Below, piece by piece: positions 13,395 through 40,222 of a stretch of DNA of 64,000 nt. The position numbers and the translations under genes are program-made. The stretch lies in contig OZ252299.1 of assembly GCA_965250285.1 (NCBI GenBank), positions 5,095,966 through 5,159,965 on the forward strand, read 5' to 3'. The notes below the pieces were generated by a model. That model did not search any database, was not told where the DNA came from, and was given only the letters and a program-made list of their open reading frames with translations. The first letter of the stretch is position 1. Each line of letters opens with the position of its first letter. The stretch is from Myxococcota bacterium. GTDB taxonomy: Bacteria > Myxococcota_A > UBA9160 > UBA4427.

Positions 13395-15932
13395 ATGGAT
13401 CCGGTTTCCACCCTTCGAGTCCGGCGTCTGACCGGCACGCTGGCTGCGCTGTGGGCGATCTCAGCGGTGGCCATGTCGGCCTTCGCGCTGATCCCTCGCG
13501 CCGATACGCCCTCGCTCCCCTTCAGCAGCGCCTTCGTGGCCGGCGTGGCCTTGATCCACGCCGTCGGACCCGACGCACGCGAAGCGGGCATCGAGCCCGG
13601 CGACGAGTGGATCTCGATCGACGGTGAGCCGGTCGTGCGGATGATGGATGAAGGGCGGGGCGCGCTCTTCCCGGGGCGCGTGAACGTCTACGAGGTCGAG
13701 AAGCAGGATGGCCGGGTCGTCAAGGCCGCGCTCTCGCCCCAGCCACCGGGCGCAAACGAGCGGCCCGGCGATCTGCTGCTGCACTTCGCGCTGCTGATCG
13801 TCGCGTCGCTCTACGTGACGGTCGGTCTCGCGGTGTGGTGGAGCAAACCGGGGACGGCCGAGGCGTGGGCGCTCCTGCTCTTCTGCTCGACGATGACGGT
13901 GCTGATCTCGACGACGATTCGCGCCGACGAGGTGCCGTGGTCGTTCTCGCGCGTGCTCGCGAACCTGCCCTTCATCGGTGCGACGACGTTCCACCTGTTC
14001 ACGACCTATCCGATCGAGCCGCCCTGGATCGTCCGCTATCGACGCACGCGCGCGGTGCCCTATCTGCTCGCATTCGCGATCTTTCTGGGCGTGGTCGGCG
14101 TGCGCGCGGGCACCATCGACGCTCGACTGATGGCATCGATCGCGGGCTTCTACGGCGTCGGCGTCGCGCTGGCCTCGGTGGCGGTGCTCGCGGCGCAGCG
14201 GCGGCGCGCACACGACGCGGGGATCGGCGAGCGCGTCGACCTCATGTTGCTCGCGGGCGTCGTGAGCTTCGTGCCGATGCTGCTGATGATCGGCATGGTC
14301 TACGTGCTGCAGACGCCGATCCCCTGGTACATGGCCATGCTCTGGGTGGGCTTCTTCCCGCTCGCGGTGGGCTACGGGATGCTGCGCAAGCAGCTCTTCG
14401 ACTTTCGCATCGTCGCGCGCTCGTCGGCCGCCTACGGCGCCGCGACCTTCACCATCACCGGTTTGTTCGCGTTCTCGATCACCTTCGCCGACGAGCTGAT
14501 CCAGACCTACGGCGTGAACGTGCGCAGCGTGCAGGTGATCCTGCTCTTTCTCGCGATCCTCGCCTTCAATCCGCTGCGCGAACGACTGCAGGGGCTGGTC
14601 GATCGCCTCTTCGATCGCGACCGCGCGCGCTATCGCCAGGCCGTGCGAGAGATCTCGGAGGCGATGGTGTCGATGCTGTCGCTGGGTGAGATCGGCGATC
14701 GCATTCTCGTCGCCGTGACCGACACCATGGGCGTCGAACGCGCGATGGTCCTGCTCTTCGACGAGAACGACAAGGTGCTGCGGCCGGCCGCGTGGCGCGG
14801 CGATTGGGACGAGCAGGACGTCCAGGCCGAGATCCCGAGCGAGCATCCGATCTGGAAGCACCTGTGGATGCGGCGCGAAGAGCTGATGCGCGCCGATTTC
14901 GACGACGAGCCCGACGCCGAGGCCCGCGAAGAGTGCTGGGACGTGTACGACACGCTCGAGGTCGAGCTGCTCGTGCCCATCCTCTTCGGTGTCGATCTGC
15001 TGGGGGTGATCGTCGTGGGGCGGAAGCTCTCGGGCGAGCGTCTGACGCCCGACGATCGACAGCTCCTGCGCACGCTCGCGAATCAGAGCTCGATCGCCAT
15101 CGAGAACGCCAAGGCGTTCGACGAGATCGCCAAGCTGAACGAATCGCTCGAGGCCCGCGTCGAGGAGCGCACCCAGGAGCTGCGCGAGACGCAGACGCAG
15201 CTGATGCAGAGCGAGAAGATGAGCTCGCTCGGTCAGCTCGTCGCCGGCGTCGCCCACGAGCTGAACAACCCGATCGGGTTCGTGCACGCCAATCTGCAGC
15301 TGCTCGACGAGTTCATCGAGAAGCTCGCGACGGCGCAGGCGTCGGGGGCCGACACCGAGCGGGTGCGCGAGGCGATCACCAAGCTGCTGACGCGCAGCCG
15401 CGAAGGCACCGAGCGCGTGAAGAAGATCGTGCAGGATCTGCGTACGTTCTCGCGCATGGATCAGGCCGAGAGCCAGATGGCCGATCTGCACGAGGAGATC
15501 GACCGGACGCTCGCGCTGATGGAGCCGCGGCTCAAGAACAAGATCAAGATCGACCGGCACTACGGCGACATCCCCGAGGTGCGCTGCTATCCGGGGCAGC
15601 TCAACCAGGTGTTCCTCAATCTGCTCATGAATGCCTGTGACGCGCTCGACGACACGGGCGGCACGATCCGCATCTCGAGCGAGCGCAGCGACCTCGGCGT
15701 GCGGCTCGAGTTCGCCGACGACGGGCCAGGGATCCCGATGCATGTCCAAAGCCGCATCTTCGATCCATTTTTCACCACCAAGGAGGTGGGCAAGGGCACG
15801 GGCCTGGGGCTCTCGCTCTCCCACGGCATCGTGGAGCGCCACGGCGGGCGCTTCCTGGTGCACTCGGAGCCCGGCGAGGGCGCGACCTTCGTGCTCGATC
15901 TGCCGCTCGACGCGGCGCCGGCGGCCGAATAG
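13395..15932 (+). CDS. Multi-pass membrane sensor histidine kinase with GAF domain
   Basis: H box HELNNPIGFVHANLQLL, N box LNLLMNACDAL, G boxes DDGPGIP and GKGTGLGLS. Preceded by a GAF-like segment, about 10 hydrophobic helices and a PDZ-like GIEPGDEWISIDGEPV segment. Confidence 0.9.
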   Translation: MDPVSTLRVRRLTGTLAALWAISAVAMSAFALIPRADTPSLPFSSAFVAGVALIHAVGPDAREAGIEPGDEWISIDGEPVVRMMDEGRGALFPGRVNVYEVEKQDGRVVKAALSPQPPGANERPGDLLLHFALLIVASLYVTVGLAVWWSKPGTAEAWALLLFCSTMTVLISTTIRADEVPWSFSRVLANLPFIGATTFHLFTTYPIEPPWIVRYRRTRAVPYLLAFAIFLGVVGVRAGTIDARLMASIAGFYGVGVALASVAVLAAQRRRAHDAGIGERVDLMLLAGVVSFVPMLLMIGMVYVLQTPIPWYMAMLWVGFFPLAVGYGMLRKQLFDFRIVARSSAAYGAATFTITGLFAFSITFADELIQTYGVNVRSVQVILLFLAILAFNPLRERLQGLVDRLFDRDRARYRQAVREISEAMVSMLSLGEIGDRILVAVTDTMGVERAMVLLFDENDKVLRPAAWRGDWDEQDVQAEIPSEHPIWKHLWMRREELMRADFDDEPDAEAREECWDVYDTLEVELLVPILFGVDLLGVIVVGRKLSGERLTPDDRQLLRTLANQSSIAIENAKAFDEIAKLNESLEARVEERTQELRETQTQLMQSEKMSSLGQLVAGVAHELNNPIGFVHANLQLLDEFIEKLATAQASGADTERVREAITKLLTRSREGTERVKKIVQDLRTFSRMDQAESQMADLHEEIDRTLALMEPRLKNKIKIDRHYGDIPEVRCYPGQLNQVFLNLLMNACDALDDTGGTIRISSERSDLGVRLEFADDGPGIPMHVQSRIFDPFFTTKEVGKGTGLGLSLSHGIVERHGGRFLVHSEPGEGATFVLDLPLDAAPAAE

Positions 15933-19728: not shown

Positions 19729-21165
19729 TTAGGGGGTAGACCTGCCGCCTACGGCTGCGCTGTCGGGCCAGTCGGCAAAGCAGTTGGTCTCGCGCTCGAA
19801 GATCCGGGCCGCACGAAGCACGAGGTCGTCGCGGTGCCGGGGGCCGACAATCTGCAGCCCGACCGGCAGGCCGGCGTTCGAGAGCCCGGCCCGCACCGTC
19901 GCGGCGGGATGCCACGACAGATTGAAGGGCATCGTGAAACTGCCGATGTTGGCGGCCGGCTGCCGTCGCCCCTCGATCTCGGCGGCGAATGGGCCGCGGG
20001 CGGGCGGCGCGTCGTACGGCACGGTGGGCGTCAGCAAGAAGTCGAACGTGTCGAACAGATCGCGGCACCACTCATTCAGGTCGGCCCGTCGTCGACGCAT
20101 GTGGCCCCAACGCTCCGCGTTCATCGCAGCGCCTCGCTTCACGCCCTCGATGAAGCTGCGACCGAAGTCGGCTTCGTGCTCGGGCAGCATCGGCTCGAGC
20201 TCGGCGAGCATCTCCCACGCGCCCGAGAAGAGCCAATCGGGCCCGGGCTCGGGCGGACCGCCTTCGATCTCTTCGACGACGTGCCCGTTGGTTTCGAAGA
20301 CCCGGGCTGCCTCGCGGACGCACTTGGCGAAGTCGCTCTGCACGACGGCGAAGCCGAGATCGGCCGAGAAGGCGAAGCGCAGTGGACGATCGAACGGCTC
20401 TTCGATGGTGTCGCGGTAGAGCAGGCCAGGATGAGGCAGCGATGCGGGATCGTCTGGATGCGCGCCGACGACGGCATCGAGGTGAAGCGCGGCGTCGCGC
20501 ACGCATCGCGTGAGTGGGCCATCGACCGACGTATCGTCCATGATCCAGAGCGGTTTCGGGCCGTGCGGAACCCGCCCGAGGCTGCCCTTCAAGCCGAAGC
20601 AGCCGGTGAGTGAGGCCGGGATGCGCACCGAGCCGCCGCCGTCGCTCGCGGTCGCGAGCGGCACGACGCCACCGGCGATGGCGGCCGATGCCCCGCCGCT
20701 CGAGCCGCCGGGTGTGCGCTCGAGATCCCATGGATTGCGGGTCTCGCCGAAGAGCACGTTCTTCGTGATCGCCGTGTAGCCGAACTCGGGCGTATTCGTC
20801 TTGCCGACGACGATCGCGCCCGCGGCCCGCAACCGTTCGACCTGAACCGAGTCGCGTTCGGCCCTGTGATCCTTGAACGGCACCGAGCCGTGCGTCGTCA
20901 CCATCCCGGCGACGTCTTCGAGATCCTTCACGCCCAGCGGCAGCCCCTCGAGCAGCCCGCCCTCTCCGCGCCGCCTTCGTTCGTCGGAGGCCTCCGCGTC
21001 TGCGATCACGGCGTCGGGGTCGCGGAGCGAGACGAAGGCATTGAGCGTGTCGTGCGTGGCATCGATGCGCTCGAGGGTCGCGCGCGCGAGCTCTGCGGCC
21101 GAGAGCGCACCGCGGTCCAAGCGGTCGAGAAGATCACTGATCGTGCACTGGAGGAGGTCGGTCAT
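19729..21165 (-). CDS. Amidase-signature family amidase
   Basis: Contains GLPLGVKD, GKTNTPEFG and GGSSGGASAAIAGG...DGGGSVRIPAS, the canonical AS sequence with the Ser-cisSer-Lys triad context. Confidence 0.9.
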   Translation of the reverse strand: MTDLLQCTISDLLDRLDRGALSAAELARATLERIDATHDTLNAFVSLRDPDAVIADAEASDERRRRGEGGLLEGLPLGVKDLEDVAGMVTTHGSVPFKDHRAERDSVQVERLRAAGAIVVGKTNTPEFGYTAITKNVLFGETRNPWDLERTPGGSSGGASAAIAGGVVPLATASDGGGSVRIPASLTGCFGLKGSLGRVPHGPKPLWIMDDTSVDGPLTRCVRDAALHLDAVVGAHPDDPASLPHPGLLYRDTIEEPFDRPLRFAFSADLGFAVVQSDFAKCVREAARVFETNGHVVEEIEGGPPEPGPDWLFSGAWEMLAELEPMLPEHEADFGRSFIEGVKRGAAMNAERWGHMRRRRADLNEWCRDLFDTFDFLLTPTVPYDAPPARGPFAAEIEGRRQPAANIGSFTMPFNLSWHPAATVRAGLSNAGLPVGLQIVGPRHRDDLVLRAARIFERETNCFADWPDSAAVGGRSTP

Positions 21166-21343: not shown

Positions 21344-22177
21344 CTACGCGGGATCGCTGCGCCGGGGCAGCGCGTCGACGAAGTCGTCGATGGCCGCCGC
21401 GAGCGCCTCGGGGGTGTCGAGCAGCACGTGGTGGCCCGCGCCCGCGATCTCGCAGAGCCGGGCGCCGGGGATCTCTTCGACGAGCTTCTCGGCGCCTTCG
21501 CGTGACAGGATCCCGCTCTCCCCGCCGCGCACCACGAGGGTCGGGCAGGCGATCTGGGCGGGGTCGGGTCGATCGCGCGGGGGCAGGGCGAACCAGGCCG
21601 GGTCGAACTTGTAGCCGTAGCGCCCGTCTTCCTCTTCGCGCACCGAGGCGGTCGCGATGGCCACGCGGAGCGCCTCGCTGCAGTGGTCGCTCGGGGGCAG
21701 GAACCGGAAGCGGTCGATCGCCTCTTCTCGCGAGCGATACGAGCGCTTGAGTCGCAGCGCCAGATGAGCCCTTCGCTTCGAACGAGGCCGGCCGCCGCGC
21801 GCGGGGTCGATCAGCACCGCTGCGCGCGTCTCGGGGTGCCGCGAGACGTGGTCGAGGGTGACGTGCGCTCCCATCGAGTGACCGACCAGAACGACGTCCC
21901 GCGCACCGATCCAGTCGAGCAGGGCCTCGAGATCGTCCTGAAACGCCCCCGCTTCGTGCTCCTCGGGATGTTCCGAGTCGCCGTGGCCACGAAAGTCGAG
22001 GGCCCAGACGCGGAATCGATCGGCGAAACGGGGCGCGAGATGATCCCACCAGTGTGCGTTTGCACCGCCCCCATGCAGCAACACCATCGGCGGAGACGCC
22101 GGGTCGCCCCAGGCACGAAGATGCAGCTCGACGCCGCCGAGCGCATCGGTGGTGAAGTGCTCGTCGATGGGTTCCAT
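21344..22177 (-). CDS. Alpha/beta-fold hydrolase
   Basis: Contains LLHGGGANAHWWDHLAPRF, DFRGHGDSE, nucleophile elbow GHSMGA and a C-terminal GAGHHV. The start is set at MEPIDEHF; the track start at 22222 is a GTG alternative. Confidence 0.8.
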   Translation of the reverse strand: MEPIDEHFTTDALGGVELHLRAWGDPASPPMVLLHGGGANAHWWDHLAPRFADRFRVWALDFRGHGDSEHPEEHEAGAFQDDLEALLDWIGARDVVLVGHSMGAHVTLDHVSRHPETRAAVLIDPARGGRPRSKRRAHLALRLKRSYRSREEAIDRFRFLPPSDHCSEALRVAIATASVREEEDGRYGYKFDPAWFALPPRDRPDPAQIACPTLVVRGGESGILSREGAEKLVEEIPGARLCEIAGAGHHVLLDTPEALAAAIDDFVDALPRRSDPA

Positions 22178-22486
22178 GCAGCCAAGGCTAGCAACGTGAT
22201 CGCCGGCACCGAATCGGGACACGGGCGGCGCCGATCAAAAAAGCGTTTTGCTGATACGAGCTTGCACCGAATCCCCGCAGTAGAGCACGAATGTCGAGAT
22301 GGCCGAAATCGACCGCCTCGCGGCTTCTCGCGGCCGATCTCGACACCCTCCGAGCGTCGACGGCGCAGACGTTCGCGAACGCTGAATTCGAGATCGGCCG
22401 CGCGAGGCCCGCTAGCCCCCCGAATCCGGGGGTCTTGGGGAACGGCCGAATTCGGCACTTTCACGCCCTCTCGATGCGTTTTCCGA

Positions 22487-22514
22487 TTGACGACCCCCGC
22501 AGAACCCTTAATAT
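22487..22514 (+). promoter_or_regulatory. Near-consensus sigma-70-type promoter of the histone-fold gene
   Basis: TTGACG (22487-22492), a 16-nt spacer, then TAATAT (22509-22514). This implies a 5' leader of about 120 nt before ATG 22640. Confidence 0.55.
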
Positions 22515-22639
22515 CGGCGCGAATCGGGGTGCAGAAGGCATCTCGGTGGATTCAAACGAATTCGTCTTTTGGGGGATACGACGACCTCGGTCACTGCGAC
22601 GAACGCAGGGCACGCAGGTCTTCGTTCAAGGGAGGGAAC

Positions 22640-22852
22640 ATGGCAGCCCGCAAGAAGAAGAAGGCCGCACGCCGCGGCAAGCCCGTCGAGCTCATCATCT
22701 CGAAGTCGCGCACCAAGGGTGCCGTCAAGAAGTGCAACGTCGGCGGTGACTTCTACGAAGCGCTCGACAAGGCGGTTCGCGAGCTGATCAAGGACGCCGA
22801 AGCGCGCGCCGTCGGCAACAAGCGCAAGACGCTGAAGGCCGTCGACCTCTAG
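22640..22852 (+). CDS. Bacterial histone-fold DNA-binding protein (HMf/Bd0055-like singlet) with a basic N-terminal tail
   Basis: 70 aa: MAARKKKKAARRGKPVELIISKSRTKGAVKKCNVGGDFYEALDKAVRELIKDAEARAVGNKRKTLKAVDL. The C-terminal G-x-KRKT-LKAVDL matches the archaeal histone GRKTIKAEDI loop2/alpha3 signature. A GGAGGG Shine-Dalgarno sits 4 nt upstream. It is embedded in a 389-aa shadow ORF in the track. Confidence 0.7.
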   Translation: MAARKKKKAARRGKPVELIISKSRTKGAVKKCNVGGDFYEALDKAVRELIKDAEARAVGNKRKTLKAVDL

Positions 22853-22928
22853 GTCGAATCTGCCGGCACGCGGCGCTCGTCGAGCGTCCGCAGAACGTCC
22901 GAGAGAATGTGAGAACGCAAGAATGAAT

Positions 22929-22968
22929 GAAGGGCTCGCCAGCATCGCTGGCGGGCCCTTCTTCATTT
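22929..22968 (+). terminator. Rho-independent terminator after the histone-fold gene
   Basis: GAAGGGCTCGCCAGC-ATC-GCTGGCGGGCCCTTC forms a 15-bp stem with 1 mismatch, followed by TTCATTT. Confidence 0.7.
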
Positions 22969-23072
22969 CGGGGCTGGCTCCGGCGCTCGAATCGTGCGGG
23001 GCGAGCGCCCAGCTTGCCTGACATCGAACGAGTCGACGCAGGCGCCGCGGTCGTGCACCTCGGCGCCCAGAG

Positions 23073-24755
23073 TCAGTCGGGCTGCAGCTCGAGCTGACTG
23101 CCCGCGGTCAACGTCAGCTCGACCCGACTGGGTCGTTGCGCAGACGTGACCACCCATTGCTTCGAGACGACCGGCTCGTCGTCGTCGAGCGTCGGCGGCC
23201 GGGCGCGCGCGAACCGCGGGCAGTGGGCGGGCGCGACGTGAATGCGCACGCGGTGGCCCGCGCGAAACCGCCACGTGCGGTGCCCGAGCGAGACGACGAG
23301 CTCATGTGGCTCGTCCTTCTGTGGCTCGTCCTTCGGTGTCGCGACGTCGTCGAGCCGCGCGAGGCCATCGCCAACTTCGAGGAGCGAGCCCCGCGGCGCG
23401 GCGTCGATCAGGTGCACCGCAAAGTCGGCCGGCGCTTGATCGGCGCCAACGAAGAGTCGCGCGACGACGGGGCCAGCCAGGACGACATCGCGCGCAAGGG
23501 GCGCGCTCTCGAGCACCGCGACGTCATCGCGCAGGGCGAGTCGCCCCTGATCCTTCGAACCGGCCTTCCAGCCGAAGAGCGCGCCGCCGATCGTGGGGGT
23601 CGGGTCGCTCGGGTCGTACTCGATCTCGACGCGTCCCGCGGCAGTGGCGGGCGCGGACACGAGGCGTGCCCGGTCGGTGCTCGCATCGAGATGGAGTGCG
23701 GCGGTGTGAGCGTCGGCGGGTGGCCAGGTCGGGCTGTCGCGCCACTCGCCGCGAGCACCGGGGTCGCAGACGAAGAATCGCACCGCGGGTGCGACGTTCG
23801 AGGGCGTGCGCTCGGCGAGGTGGGTGTCGAGATGCTCGACGATGCGACCGAGTGAACGTCGCTGCAGGCCGTCACGAAAGAAGCGGCGATGGGCGACCGG
23901 ACCATGGCACCACGGACCGAGCAGCAGCTGCGGCGCCGCGCCGAGACCGGCGGCCGCCTGCGCGGTGAGCGCTGCGTGATCGTCGAGCTGGGGCTCGAGG
24001 AAGAAATCCCAGTAGCCGCCGATCAAGAGCGTCGGGGGCGCGCGCTCGGGGAGCGGCGCCTGCACGCGGTCCCAATAGTCGTCTCGCTTCGGGCGATCGA
24101 CCCAGGTGCGGTAGAAGTCGACCTCGCAGCGCGCGACGCGGTCGGCCTCGCGAACCGGCTCGAAGTCGAAGGCCCGGTCGAGGTCGAGCTGGCGCGCGTC
24201 GACGCCTTCGCGCCGACCGACGCCGGCCGCCCACTCGACGGCGTTGGCGAACGAGAACACGCCGTGCGGATAGAAGAGGGGGTAGAGATCGCTGCTGCCG
24301 ATGGCGATCGCGAGGGCGCCGACGCGACCCGGGCGCAGCGCCGTCGCCGCCCAGGCACAGTGGGCGAGGTAGCTCGCACCGACGAGGCCGACCGGTCCAT
24401 CGCTCCAGCTCTGGGTTTCGAGCCAGTCGAGCGTGGCGGCGCCGTCTTCGGCCTCGTTCACGAAGGGCTCGAACTCGCCCTCGCTGGCGTAGCGGCCGCG
24501 CACGTCCTGCAGCACGACGTGAAAGCCATACTCGGCGAGCAGTCGGCCGAGCCAGACGAGCGTCGGCGGACGAATCCAGGTGCCGTACGGCGAACGCAGC
24601 ACGACCGTGGGCGCGCGCCCTTCGATGCCGATCGGCCACACGTGTGTCGTGGCCAGTCGGACGCCATCGGGCAGCTCGACGGCGATCGACTCGACGTCGC
24701 TTCGACACCGGGGCCGCGGCAGCCCGAGGACGCGGCGCATCCAGCGGTGGATCAT
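23073..24755 (-). CDS. CocE/NonD-family (S15 X-Pro dipeptidyl-peptidase-like) hydrolase
   Basis: Contains VVLRSPYG, FHVVLQDVRGRYASEGEF, DGAATLDWL and GLVGASYLA (nucleophile Ser context), plus a C-terminal beta-sandwich-like region. The start MIHRW (24755) overlaps the upstream gene's stop as ATGA. Confidence 0.8.
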   Translation of the reverse strand: MIHRWMRRVLGLPRPRCRSDVESIAVELPDGVRLATTHVWPIGIEGRAPTVVLRSPYGTWIRPPTLVWLGRLLAEYGFHVVLQDVRGRYASEGEFEPFVNEAEDGAATLDWLETQSWSDGPVGLVGASYLAHCAWAATALRPGRVGALAIAIGSSDLYPLFYPHGVFSFANAVEWAAGVGRREGVDARQLDLDRAFDFEPVREADRVARCEVDFYRTWVDRPKRDDYWDRVQAPLPERAPPTLLIGGYWDFFLEPQLDDHAALTAQAAAGLGAAPQLLLGPWCHGPVAHRRFFRDGLQRRSLGRIVEHLDTHLAERTPSNVAPAVRFFVCDPGARGEWRDSPTWPPADAHTAALHLDASTDRARLVSAPATAAGRVEIEYDPSDPTPTIGGALFGWKAGSKDQGRLALRDDVAVLESAPLARDVVLAGPVVARLFVGADQAPADFAVHLIDAAPRGSLLEVGDGLARLDDVATPKDEPQKDEPHELVVSLGHRTWRFRAGHRVRIHVAPAHCPRFARARPPTLDDDEPVVSKQWVVTSAQRPSRVELTLTAGSQLELQPD

Positions 24756-39451: not shown

Positions 39452-39600
39452 ACGGGGGATCTTAGGCGCTGCGGCTCGGGGTTTCGCCCACCCGCGCCCC
39501 ATCGAAGCCGCATGATTCGCCGGGTCCCACCCGCAATGAAGGCATCGCGATCGTGGCGGAATTCGGTGTGAGATGCCGAATTCGGGCGGTTCGCGGCTGA

Positions 39601-39739: not shown

Positions 39740-40222
39740 ATGCAGAACATCGAAGAAATCGAGTCGGGTCTGCTCGTGACGCACAAGGCGACGGGCCTTC
39801 GCTACTCCGTCGTCGAGGCGGAAGACGAAGAGGTGCTGCTCTCGCCCGAGCAGGACGGTCTCCAGGATCTCACGATGCCGCTCGAGCTCTTTCAGCAGGA
39901 GTTCGTGGCGTCGGATCGCTTCCGCGGCACCAATCCGCGCCGCCGCGGACGCGGGGGTCGAGGTCGTCGCGCACAGGCAGCCCCCGCCGCACCGACCGGA
40001 CCCAAGTGCAAAGGCAAGATCAAGAAGATGGTGCGCGATCGTGGCTTCGGGTTCATTCGCGGCGACGACGGCAAGGAAGTCTTCTTTCACCGATCGGGCC
40101 TGAACGCGGCCGAGTACGACGGTCTGAACGAGGGTGATCCGGTCGAGTACGTCGTTCAGGAAGGCCCGCGCGGCGCGCGCGCCGAGAACGTAAAGTTCGC
40201 CCAGAGCACGCCCGCCAGCTGA
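39740..40222 (+). CDS. Cold-shock-domain protein with an acidic N-terminal domain and an Arg/Gly-rich linker
   Basis: The C-terminal CSD reads GKIKKMVRDRGFGFIRGDDGKEVFFHRSGL...EGDPVEYVVQEGPRGARAENV (RNP1-like GFGFI, RNP2-like VFFH). The start is set at ATG 39740 behind GAGGTG; the track uses GTG 39731. Confidence 0.8.
   Translation: MQNIEEIESGLLVTHKATGLRYSVVEAEDEEVLLSPEQDGLQDLTMPLELFQQEFVASDRFRGTNPRRRGRGGRGRRAQAAPAAPTGPKCKGKIKKMVRDRGFGFIRGDDGKEVFFHRSGLNAAEYDGLNEGDPVEYVVQEGPRGARAENVKFAQSTPAS

Follow-up and report, generated by a model that had tools for sequence, protein, structure and literature searches.

The α3-truncated histones, in which helix α3 spans only 3–4 residues and helix α2 falls short of its nucleosomal counterpart (Schwab et al. 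2024), include three proteins of solved structure: HBb (Bd0055) of Bdellovibrio bacteriovorus (PDB 8CMP, 8FVX and 9EZZ), which is dimeric and a major nucleoid protein of that bacterium; HLp of Leptospira perolatii (PDB 9QT0, 9QT1 and 9QT2; Hu et al. 2025, PMC12701072); and HTkC of the archaeon Thermococcus kodakarensis (PDB 9F2C; PMC11390915; bioRxiv 10.64898/2025.12.06.692711). HLp and HTkC wrap approximately 60 bp of DNA non-specifically around a tetramer. The subject here is a 70-residue open reading frame (ORF) in a 64,000-nucleotide stretch of a Myxococcota genome (assembly GCA_965250285.1, contig OZ252299.1, positions 5,095,966–5,159,965 of the forward strand), hereafter the window. Its product is likely to be a nucleoid-associated α3-truncated histone of the face-to-face (FtF) subtype.

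The hidden Markov model logo of FtF histones places the interface residues Arg 48 and Asn 52 in the C-terminal part of α2, upstream of R54, T56 and D61 (PMC11390915); the equivalent residues in HLp are R49, N53, R55, T57 and D62 (PMC12701072). In HTkC, R45 makes a salt bridge to the carboxylate at the C terminus of the dimer opposite, and the R45A variant is a dimer (bioRxiv 10.64898/2025.12.06.692711). The importance of the position of this carboxylate has been set out for HTkC and for the H. volcanii protein D4GZE0 (PMC11390915; bioRxiv 10.64898/2025.12.06.692711). Bacterial dimer histones are defined in part by the absence of both interface residues, Arg and Asn (Schwab et al. 2024).

Fold, subtype and DNA-contact surface

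A profile built from an alignment of 71 family members (A2) matched the solved structures of HTkC (9f2c, E = 4.5e-17, 65.3 bits), HLp (9qt0, 9e-15, 58.0 bits), HBb (8cmp, 3.6e-12, 49.6 bits; 8fvx, 1.5e-11) and MJ1647 (8bdk, 6.5e-6). Matches to HMfA (5e-3) and HMfB (0.03), covering α2 to loop L2, were marginal, as were those to HPhA and NF-YB, also within 0.005–0.03. The AlphaFold2 model computed with A2 has a mean per-residue confidence score (pLDDT) of 82.6, with residues 21–70 at 90–95, and shows a helix–loop–helix–loop–helix arrangement in which a long α2 of 24 residues is followed by an α3 of a single turn (residues 67–69) before the chain ends at residue 70. The one-turn α3 and the 24-residue α2 place the protein in the α3-truncated family of Schwab et al. 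2024. In a Foldseek search of the PDB the top matches were all histones, led by HLp (target-normalized template-modelling (TM) score 0.85–0.87, root-mean-square deviation (r.m.s.d.) 1.2–1.3 Å) and followed by HTkC (0.83) and HBb (0.75–0.80). All three were assigned a probability of 1.00, with an r.m.s.d. of 1.2–1.5 Å over 55–57 columns, and eukaryotic H4 and NF-Y were far behind. Within A2, R62, T64 and D69, which form an RxTxxxxD motif, are invariant, and R56, N60 and L70 are conserved in at least 90% of members. HTkC, HLp and HBb are thus homologous to residues 16–70, for which the same fold is predicted.

A sequence-only reading of this DNA had proposed a bacterial histone-fold DNA-packaging protein, akin to HMf-type histones and to Bd0055. 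The core of this proposal, together with a basic and disordered N-terminal tail, is well supported by the profile searches, the structure model and the conservation. The proposed kinship stands as regards the fold and the RxTxxxxD motif, both of which are shared; the closest relatives of known structure, however, are HTkC and HLp, and the HMf matches are marginal. HBb is not the closest analogue, as it carries Ser and Asp at the positions of R56 and N60 and scores below HTkC and HLp in the profile search.

Two other histone types were considered and rejected. The full-length α3 of HMfB-type archaeal nucleosomal histones, approximately 10 residues long, allows a four-helix-bundle interface and hypernucleosome stacking; the window protein has the single turn described above, and its family profile matches HMfA and HMfB only marginally. 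The DUF1931 pseudodimeric histones (Aq_328 and TTHA1846) carry two folds per chain, whereas a single 55-residue fold is present here, and PF09123 gave no match at E up to 10. Relatives of the protein are named ‘histone H3/H4’ in JGI records and ‘DUF1931 domain-containing protein’ in NCBI records; the latter is a loose label, since PF09123 does not match the window protein and DUF1931 matches only 31 of the 71 relatives, weakly.

The assignment to the FtF subtype follows from the residue spacing and from the position of the C terminus. The spacing R56-x3-N60-x-R62-x-T64-x4-D69 coincides with positions 48, 52, 54, 56 and 61 of the FtF logo and with R49, N53, R55, T57 and D62 of HLp, and R56 aligns with HTkC R45 in the A2 profile alignment. 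The chain ends D69-L70-stop, which places the carboxylate one residue past the motif Asp, as in FtF histones, including HLp; the RD clamp of HLp (R55–D62) corresponds to R62–D69. The window protein is only about 30% identical to HLp, and its L1 loop is two residues shorter. Identity to HTkC, the best profile match, is about 35% in the Foldseek alignment, and the two proteins share FYxAL at the start of α2 as well as the short α3. HTkC differs in being archaeal and tailless (it starts MAEMLVKSK), in having Glu at the position of N60 and a longer L1, and in coexisting with nucleosomal histones.

HBb shares the α3-truncated fold, the S-K motif in α1 and the GRKT...D motif in L2, and it matches both the profile and the model well, at the values given above. 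A histone of this type would stay dimeric and would bend DNA or coat straight DNA end-on instead of wrapping it around a tetramer. Schwab et al. 2024 place bacterial dimer histones in Myxococcota_A, the RKTxxxD form of L2 (K63 after R62) has been noted for bacterial dimers and nucleosomal histones, and the FtF logo has no strongly conserved basic residue at the position of K63. Such a dimer is nevertheless rather unlikely here: in place of the Ser and Asp of HBb, R56 and N60 are found in the window protein and in 90% or more of its family, the 66-residue HBb continues beyond its aligned end at residue 61 where the window chain stops one residue past the motif Asp, and the two FtF proteins outscore HBb in the profile search, with 65.3 and 58.0 bits against 49.6.

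Several points weigh against the assignment to a DNA-wrapping FtF histone. Scans of the single sequence against Pfam and NCBIfam gave nothing meaningful (SU10_MCP, 0.14; YfiA, 0.05), which made a family profile necessary; matches of the single sequence to solved α3 histones were weak (HTkC, 0.007; HLp, 0.05), as were the Pfam matches among the 71 relatives (DUF1931 in 31, CBFD_NFYB_HMF in 25). The Foldseek E-values are also weak (4.5e-3), because the domain is tiny. Tetramer formation is suggested by conserved residues only, and the interface is not identical to that of HLp, whose S52, T61 and F63 are G59, V68 and L70 here. One DNA-contacting residue of HLp, T27, is replaced by V34. Any part of the N-terminal tail in DNA binding, whether through charge neutralization, stabilization of wraps or bridges, or as a modification target, is conjecture, and the non-basic N terminus of HLp offers no precedent for it.

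The remaining residues known to contact DNA in HLp are largely retained. In HLp crystals the contacts are made by A13/S14/K15, K17, K21, T27, G29, T56 and T57, and R59, K21, K15, S14 and K17 provide 52% of the computed DNA-binding energy (Hu et al. 2025, PMC12701072). These five main binders align with K66, K30, R24, S23 and K26, respectively, and are thus conserved in type. The A13/S14/K15 group corresponds to K22/S23/R24, G29 to G36 and T56/T57 to K63/T64. In this alignment the basic character of the DNA surface is kept or raised relative to HLp.

By analogy with HLp and HTkC, two monomers of the window protein would form a head-to-tail histone-fold dimer, and two dimers would close into a toroidal tetramer. 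In it, R56 would bind the dimer opposite at its C-terminal carboxylate, and N60 and R62 would build a network of hydrogen bonds at the interface’s front. Approximately 60 bp of DNA would wrap non-specifically around this tetramer, contacted by α1 (K22/S23/R24, K26 and K30), L1 (G36) and L2 (K61, K63, T64 and K66).

Gene conservation and the N-terminal tail

The 70-residue ORF is, as the sequence-only reading had noted, nested in a longer shadow frame, forming the 3′ end of a 389-residue frame in the same phase. The G+C content at third codon positions (GC3) is 0.90 in the ORF and drops to 0.60 in the same frame over the preceding 417-nucleotide intergenic stretch (22223–22639), and farther upstream the long frame overlaps a genuine α/β-hydrolase gene on the opposite strand. 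The 389-residue frame is therefore noncoding, an artefact of the 68.9% G+C genome. Use of ATG 22640 as the start is supported by the homologues: MAA(R/K) opens the protein at this point in all 120 of the best clusters and at nearly all of the 77 species-level genome loci, and where other gene calls extend the N terminus, in a few cases, the added stretches are mutually unrelated.

A word-indexed search found 1,920 clusters (at 90% identity) with E ≤ 1e-3, of which the best 120 are 68–90 residues long and share at least 80% identity; the 50%-identity representatives, searched exhaustively, yielded 154. Relatives are encoded by at least 168 species-level genomes, the best being 96% identical. 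The nearest genomes are overwhelmingly metagenome-assembled genomes (MAGs) labelled Myxococcota or Deltaproteobacteria, and scattered relatives occur in Methylomirabilota, Latescibacterota, Planctomycetota and Eisenbacteria. MAGs labelled ‘uncultured Spirochaetales/Spirochaetaceae’ (TPA ‘binchicken’ and SRP co-assemblies) also bear this histone, at up to 96% identity. There are nine such loci, six of which have the same hydrolase neighbour as the Myxococcota MAGs, three of these with the amidase gene as well, and the labels look unreliable. Among the relatives are also seven natural tandem doublets of approximately 120 residues, in which both halves have the same α3 histone fold and retain the Arg and Asn interface residues and the RxTxxxxD motif.

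In near-identical relatives the third codon position bears every substitution (loci L001 and L002) or the majority of them (L003). The L002 gene differs from the window ORF at 8 of 210 nucleotides, all in third positions, and encodes an identical protein, whereas the adjoining hydrolase is only 69% identical to that of the window. Lys is encoded exclusively by AAG and Arg exclusively by CGC; together with the high GC3 and the promoter architecture described below, this is consistent with high expression. A tblastn search of the 64-kb window revealed no second histone copy. High-G+C DNA yields many long spurious ORFs, the 389-residue frame among them, so that a chance open frame without a gene might be considered. 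This explanation is effectively refuted by the more than 1,900 homologous clusters, the third-position bias of substitutions, the GC3 contrast with the flank, the conserved promoter, ribosome-binding site and terminator, and the confidently predicted fold. The histone ORF is a genuine gene under strong purifying selection.

Residues 1–15 form a conserved, highly basic tail that is predicted to be disordered: they have pLDDT values of 51–65 and no secondary structure in the model. This agrees with the basic tail proposed from the sequence, which contains no acidic residue (Table 1). The whole protein has 21 Lys or Arg residues and 8 Asp or Glu residues, with a predicted isoelectric point of 10.4. 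The tail is present in all 120 top clusters, with a mean of 7.8 Lys or Arg residues and the pattern M-A-A-[RK]-[KR]-K-K-[KA]-A-x-R-x-G-K-P, and in nearly all of the 77 genome loci, where it is 8–19 residues long as parsed; at one locus (L046) the parsed N terminus is not basic. More distant relatives range from tailless forms of 55–56 residues to proteins with tails of 40–60 residues. In six of the latter the tail consists of KKA, KKT or RKKA repeats and resembles linker-histone or AlgP/HupB-type tails.

The tail had been taken for an unusual addition to a bacterial histone, a view that the literature does not bear out. Bacterial FtF histones, found in Myxococcota, Spirochaetota, Planctomycetota and Bdellovibrionota, often reach 60–100 residues on account of N-terminal tails that are for the most part positively charged (Schwab et al. 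2024, Supplementary Fig. 13), and the length data of that study give 63–100 residues for many of them, compared with approximately 55 in archaea. The window protein belongs to this group. No tail sequence is conserved across bacteria in that set, whereas the MAA[RK][RK]KK...KP pattern of the present clade holds over hundreds of genomes. Hocher et al. 2023 describe most bacterial singlets as lacking long tails, and none of the three solved α3 histones (HBb, HLp and HTkC) has a strongly basic one. The N-terminal extension of HLp, about 10 residues long (...QNAEKD), is disordered and not basic, in contrast to the 15-residue tail of the window protein with its 8 Lys or Arg residues. HBb likewise has no basic tail, and its C terminus is longer.

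Eukaryotic core-histone tails and those of Asgard tailed histones similarly place a short, disordered, Lys/Arg-rich extension before α1. They share no detectable homology with the window tail, however, and the window core is α3-truncated and presumably homotetrameric rather than nucleosomal; moreover, no modification enzymes or readers have been linked to the window histone. The literature searched contained no experiments on basic tails of this kind. Reasoning from analogy and charge, four tails per tetramer, with a total charge of approximately +32, would project from the start of α1 beside the DNA path. They could neutralize phosphate charge and thereby raise affinity, stabilize a tight wrap or bridge neighbouring DNA, and they are candidate sites of lysine modification. 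There is a slim chance that the clade’s tail (mature N terminus AARKKKK...) does more than supply charge passively and is under regulation, its lysines being reversibly acetylated or methylated, or its N terminus processed, so as to tune the tightness of wrapping or bridging. Bacteria would then have evolved, independently, an equivalent of histone-tail signalling.

Transcription unit and neighbouring genes

The gene is accompanied by its own expression signals (Table 1). The promoter, the Shine–Dalgarno sequence and the terminator with its 15-bp stem, all of which had been proposed from the sequence, were confirmed, and the implied leader has about the proposed length of 120 nucleotides.

Table 1 Features of the histone locus and other sites mentioned in the text (window coordinates)
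Feature	Coordinates	Strand	Details
Histone ORF	22640–22852	+	ATG 22640, TAG 22850–22852; 70 residues, product MAARKKKKAARRGKPVELIISKSRTKGAVKKCNVGGDFYEALDKAVRELIKDAEARAVGNKRKTLKAVDL
Basic tail MAARKKKKAARRGKP	22640–22684	+	Codons 1–15; 8 K/R, no D/E
Histone fold	22685–22852	+	Codons 16–70 and stop; predicted helices α1 22–28, α2 36–59, α3 67–69 (AlphaFold2)
Promoter, σ70 type	22487–22514	+	TTGACG-16 nt-TAATAT; only such site in 2.5 kb, 0.1 expected from shuffles
T-tract, UP-element-like	22479–22482	+	Directly before −35
Perfect 10-bp palindrome CCGAATTCGG	22446–22455		31 nt upstream of −35 hexamer
5′ leader (putative)	22521–22639	+	About 119 nt, from the −10 to ATG distance; predicted transcription start
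Shine–Dalgarno GGAGGG	22631–22636	+	Within GGGAGGG 22630–22636; 3 nt before ATG
Intrinsic terminator	22929–22971	+	Scan hit 22929–22961; 15-bp stem, 11 G-C pairs, 3-nt loop, T-rich tail TTCATTTCGG
α/β-Hydrolase gene	21344–22222	−	Divergent; Pfam Abhydrolase_6 and Abhydrolase_1
Enclosing 389-residue frame	21683–22852	+	Noncoding
Amidase gene	19729–21165		Beyond hydrolase
G+C-rich hairpin CCCCCG-AATC-CGGGGG, then TCTT	22419–22434	+	About 55 nt upstream of −35; found by eye
Second CCGAATTCGG copy	39576–39585		15 nt upstream of TTGACC-17-TAAGAT
Cold-shock-domain gene	39740–40222		Start about 155 nt after second CCGAATTCGG copy
Histidine kinase gene	13395–15932	+	845 residues; GAF, HisKA and HATPase_c

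In related genomes the promoter consensus is TTGACT/A-16-TATGAT. At least 9 of the 12 consensus positions are matched in 61 of 78 upstream regions, the window’s own included, compared with 36 of 390 mononucleotide shuffles. Alignment of 51 upstream regions from other genomes, anchored on the best −35/−10 pair, revealed a conserved layout: an A-rich stretch, a CCGAAWTCGG palindrome approximately 40 nucleotides before −35, a T-tract abutting −35 (TTTTT is among the most conserved columns) and a GAAAC.CT motif within the 16-nucleotide spacer. The palindromic element lies 38–41 nucleotides upstream of the start of −35 in about half of these promoters. After the stop codon, a G+C-rich hairpin followed by a T-rich tail was found in 57 of 75 scored cases, with differing stem sequences. 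From the conserved promoter layout and these hairpins it follows that the histone gene is a conserved monocistronic unit. A further G+C-rich hairpin, farther upstream of the promoter, is kept at the matching position in the three closest relatives (L001–L003) with altered stem bases, and might serve as an insulating terminator or as a site where a protein binds.

A distance of 125 nucleotides separates the last base of the −10 hexamer from the ATG. The segment comprising the leader and the first 21 nucleotides of the ORF (22521–22660) has a predicted folding energy of −52.6 kcal/mol (z = −3.97; none of 200 shuffles was as stable). A search of Rfam with 22200–23100 returned sub-threshold chance matches only. 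Leader length varies from 43 to 270 nucleotides among relatives, so there is no broadly conserved RNA element, and a conserved riboswitch-like leader was rejected on this ground, the unusual predicted stability of the local leader notwithstanding.

The palindrome CCGAATTCGG is a candidate operator or activator site. A second copy precedes a cold-shock-domain gene and its promoter-like sequence, and the two sites in 64 kb compare with approximately 0.26 expected; 1 of 100 shuffles contained as many. The element may be an operator shared by abundant nucleic-acid-binding proteins, and there is a slim chance that it ties histone expression to a stress regulon shared with cold-shock-domain genes.

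A conserved upstream palindrome suggests regulated rather than constitutive expression and so bears on whether bulk packaging is the main role of the protein, which might instead be a regulator of specific transcription, a small basic protein associated with RNA or the ribosome, or a nucleoid protein specific to stress and made only under certain conditions. The occurrence of the same 10-mer before a cold-shock-domain gene and the long, predicted structured leader point the same way. Histone folds elsewhere serve non-chromatin roles, for example in NF-Y, which is among the weak profile matches, and the expression of HTkC-type histones varies with conditions (PMC11390915). Such a role is nonetheless quite improbable in view of the conserved HLp DNA-contact residues, the extreme sequence conservation over hundreds of genomes, the single copy in the window and the lack of a partner domain or operon partner.

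The window gene is free-standing beside the divergent α/β-hydrolase gene, whereas hlp adjoins smc and map genes. Of 82 related loci, 54 have the hydrolase likewise placed and oriented, with approximately 50–60% identity, and the amidase gene is syntenic in 22; the downstream neighbour is a convergent S15 peptidase gene. None of these three suggests a chromatin function, and no writer or reader domain was found in the neighbouring genes scanned. In NCBIfam the hydrolase gave generic sub-threshold matches only and no specific family; a functional tie to the histone, for example as a tail deacylase, was accordingly set aside as unsupported. A GAF-domain histidine kinase is encoded about 7 kb upstream, and nothing ties it to the histone gene.

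Significance of the clade

The most apt description of the window protein is a tailed FtF α3 histone, from a class listed in 2024 for which HLp and HTkC are the structural examples; its tail is what is usual for that class, not an exception. With both the class and its tails on record beforehand, the current picture of bacterial histones is unchanged. Three aspects retain interest: the tail pattern kept throughout the clade, what such tails do in bacterial histones, and the palindrome conserved close to the promoter.

It was not until 2023–2025 that histones were demonstrated to be major chromatin components of bacteria, and then in just two culturable lineages. In environmental genomes the present clade has a much broader distribution than either of these, with more than 1,900 clusters at 90% identity, most of them derived from uncultured Myxococcota. 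It is well suited to tests of histone-tail function on a presumably tetrameric, non-nucleosomal core, and its conserved promoter, palindrome and terminator provide handles for studies of expression.

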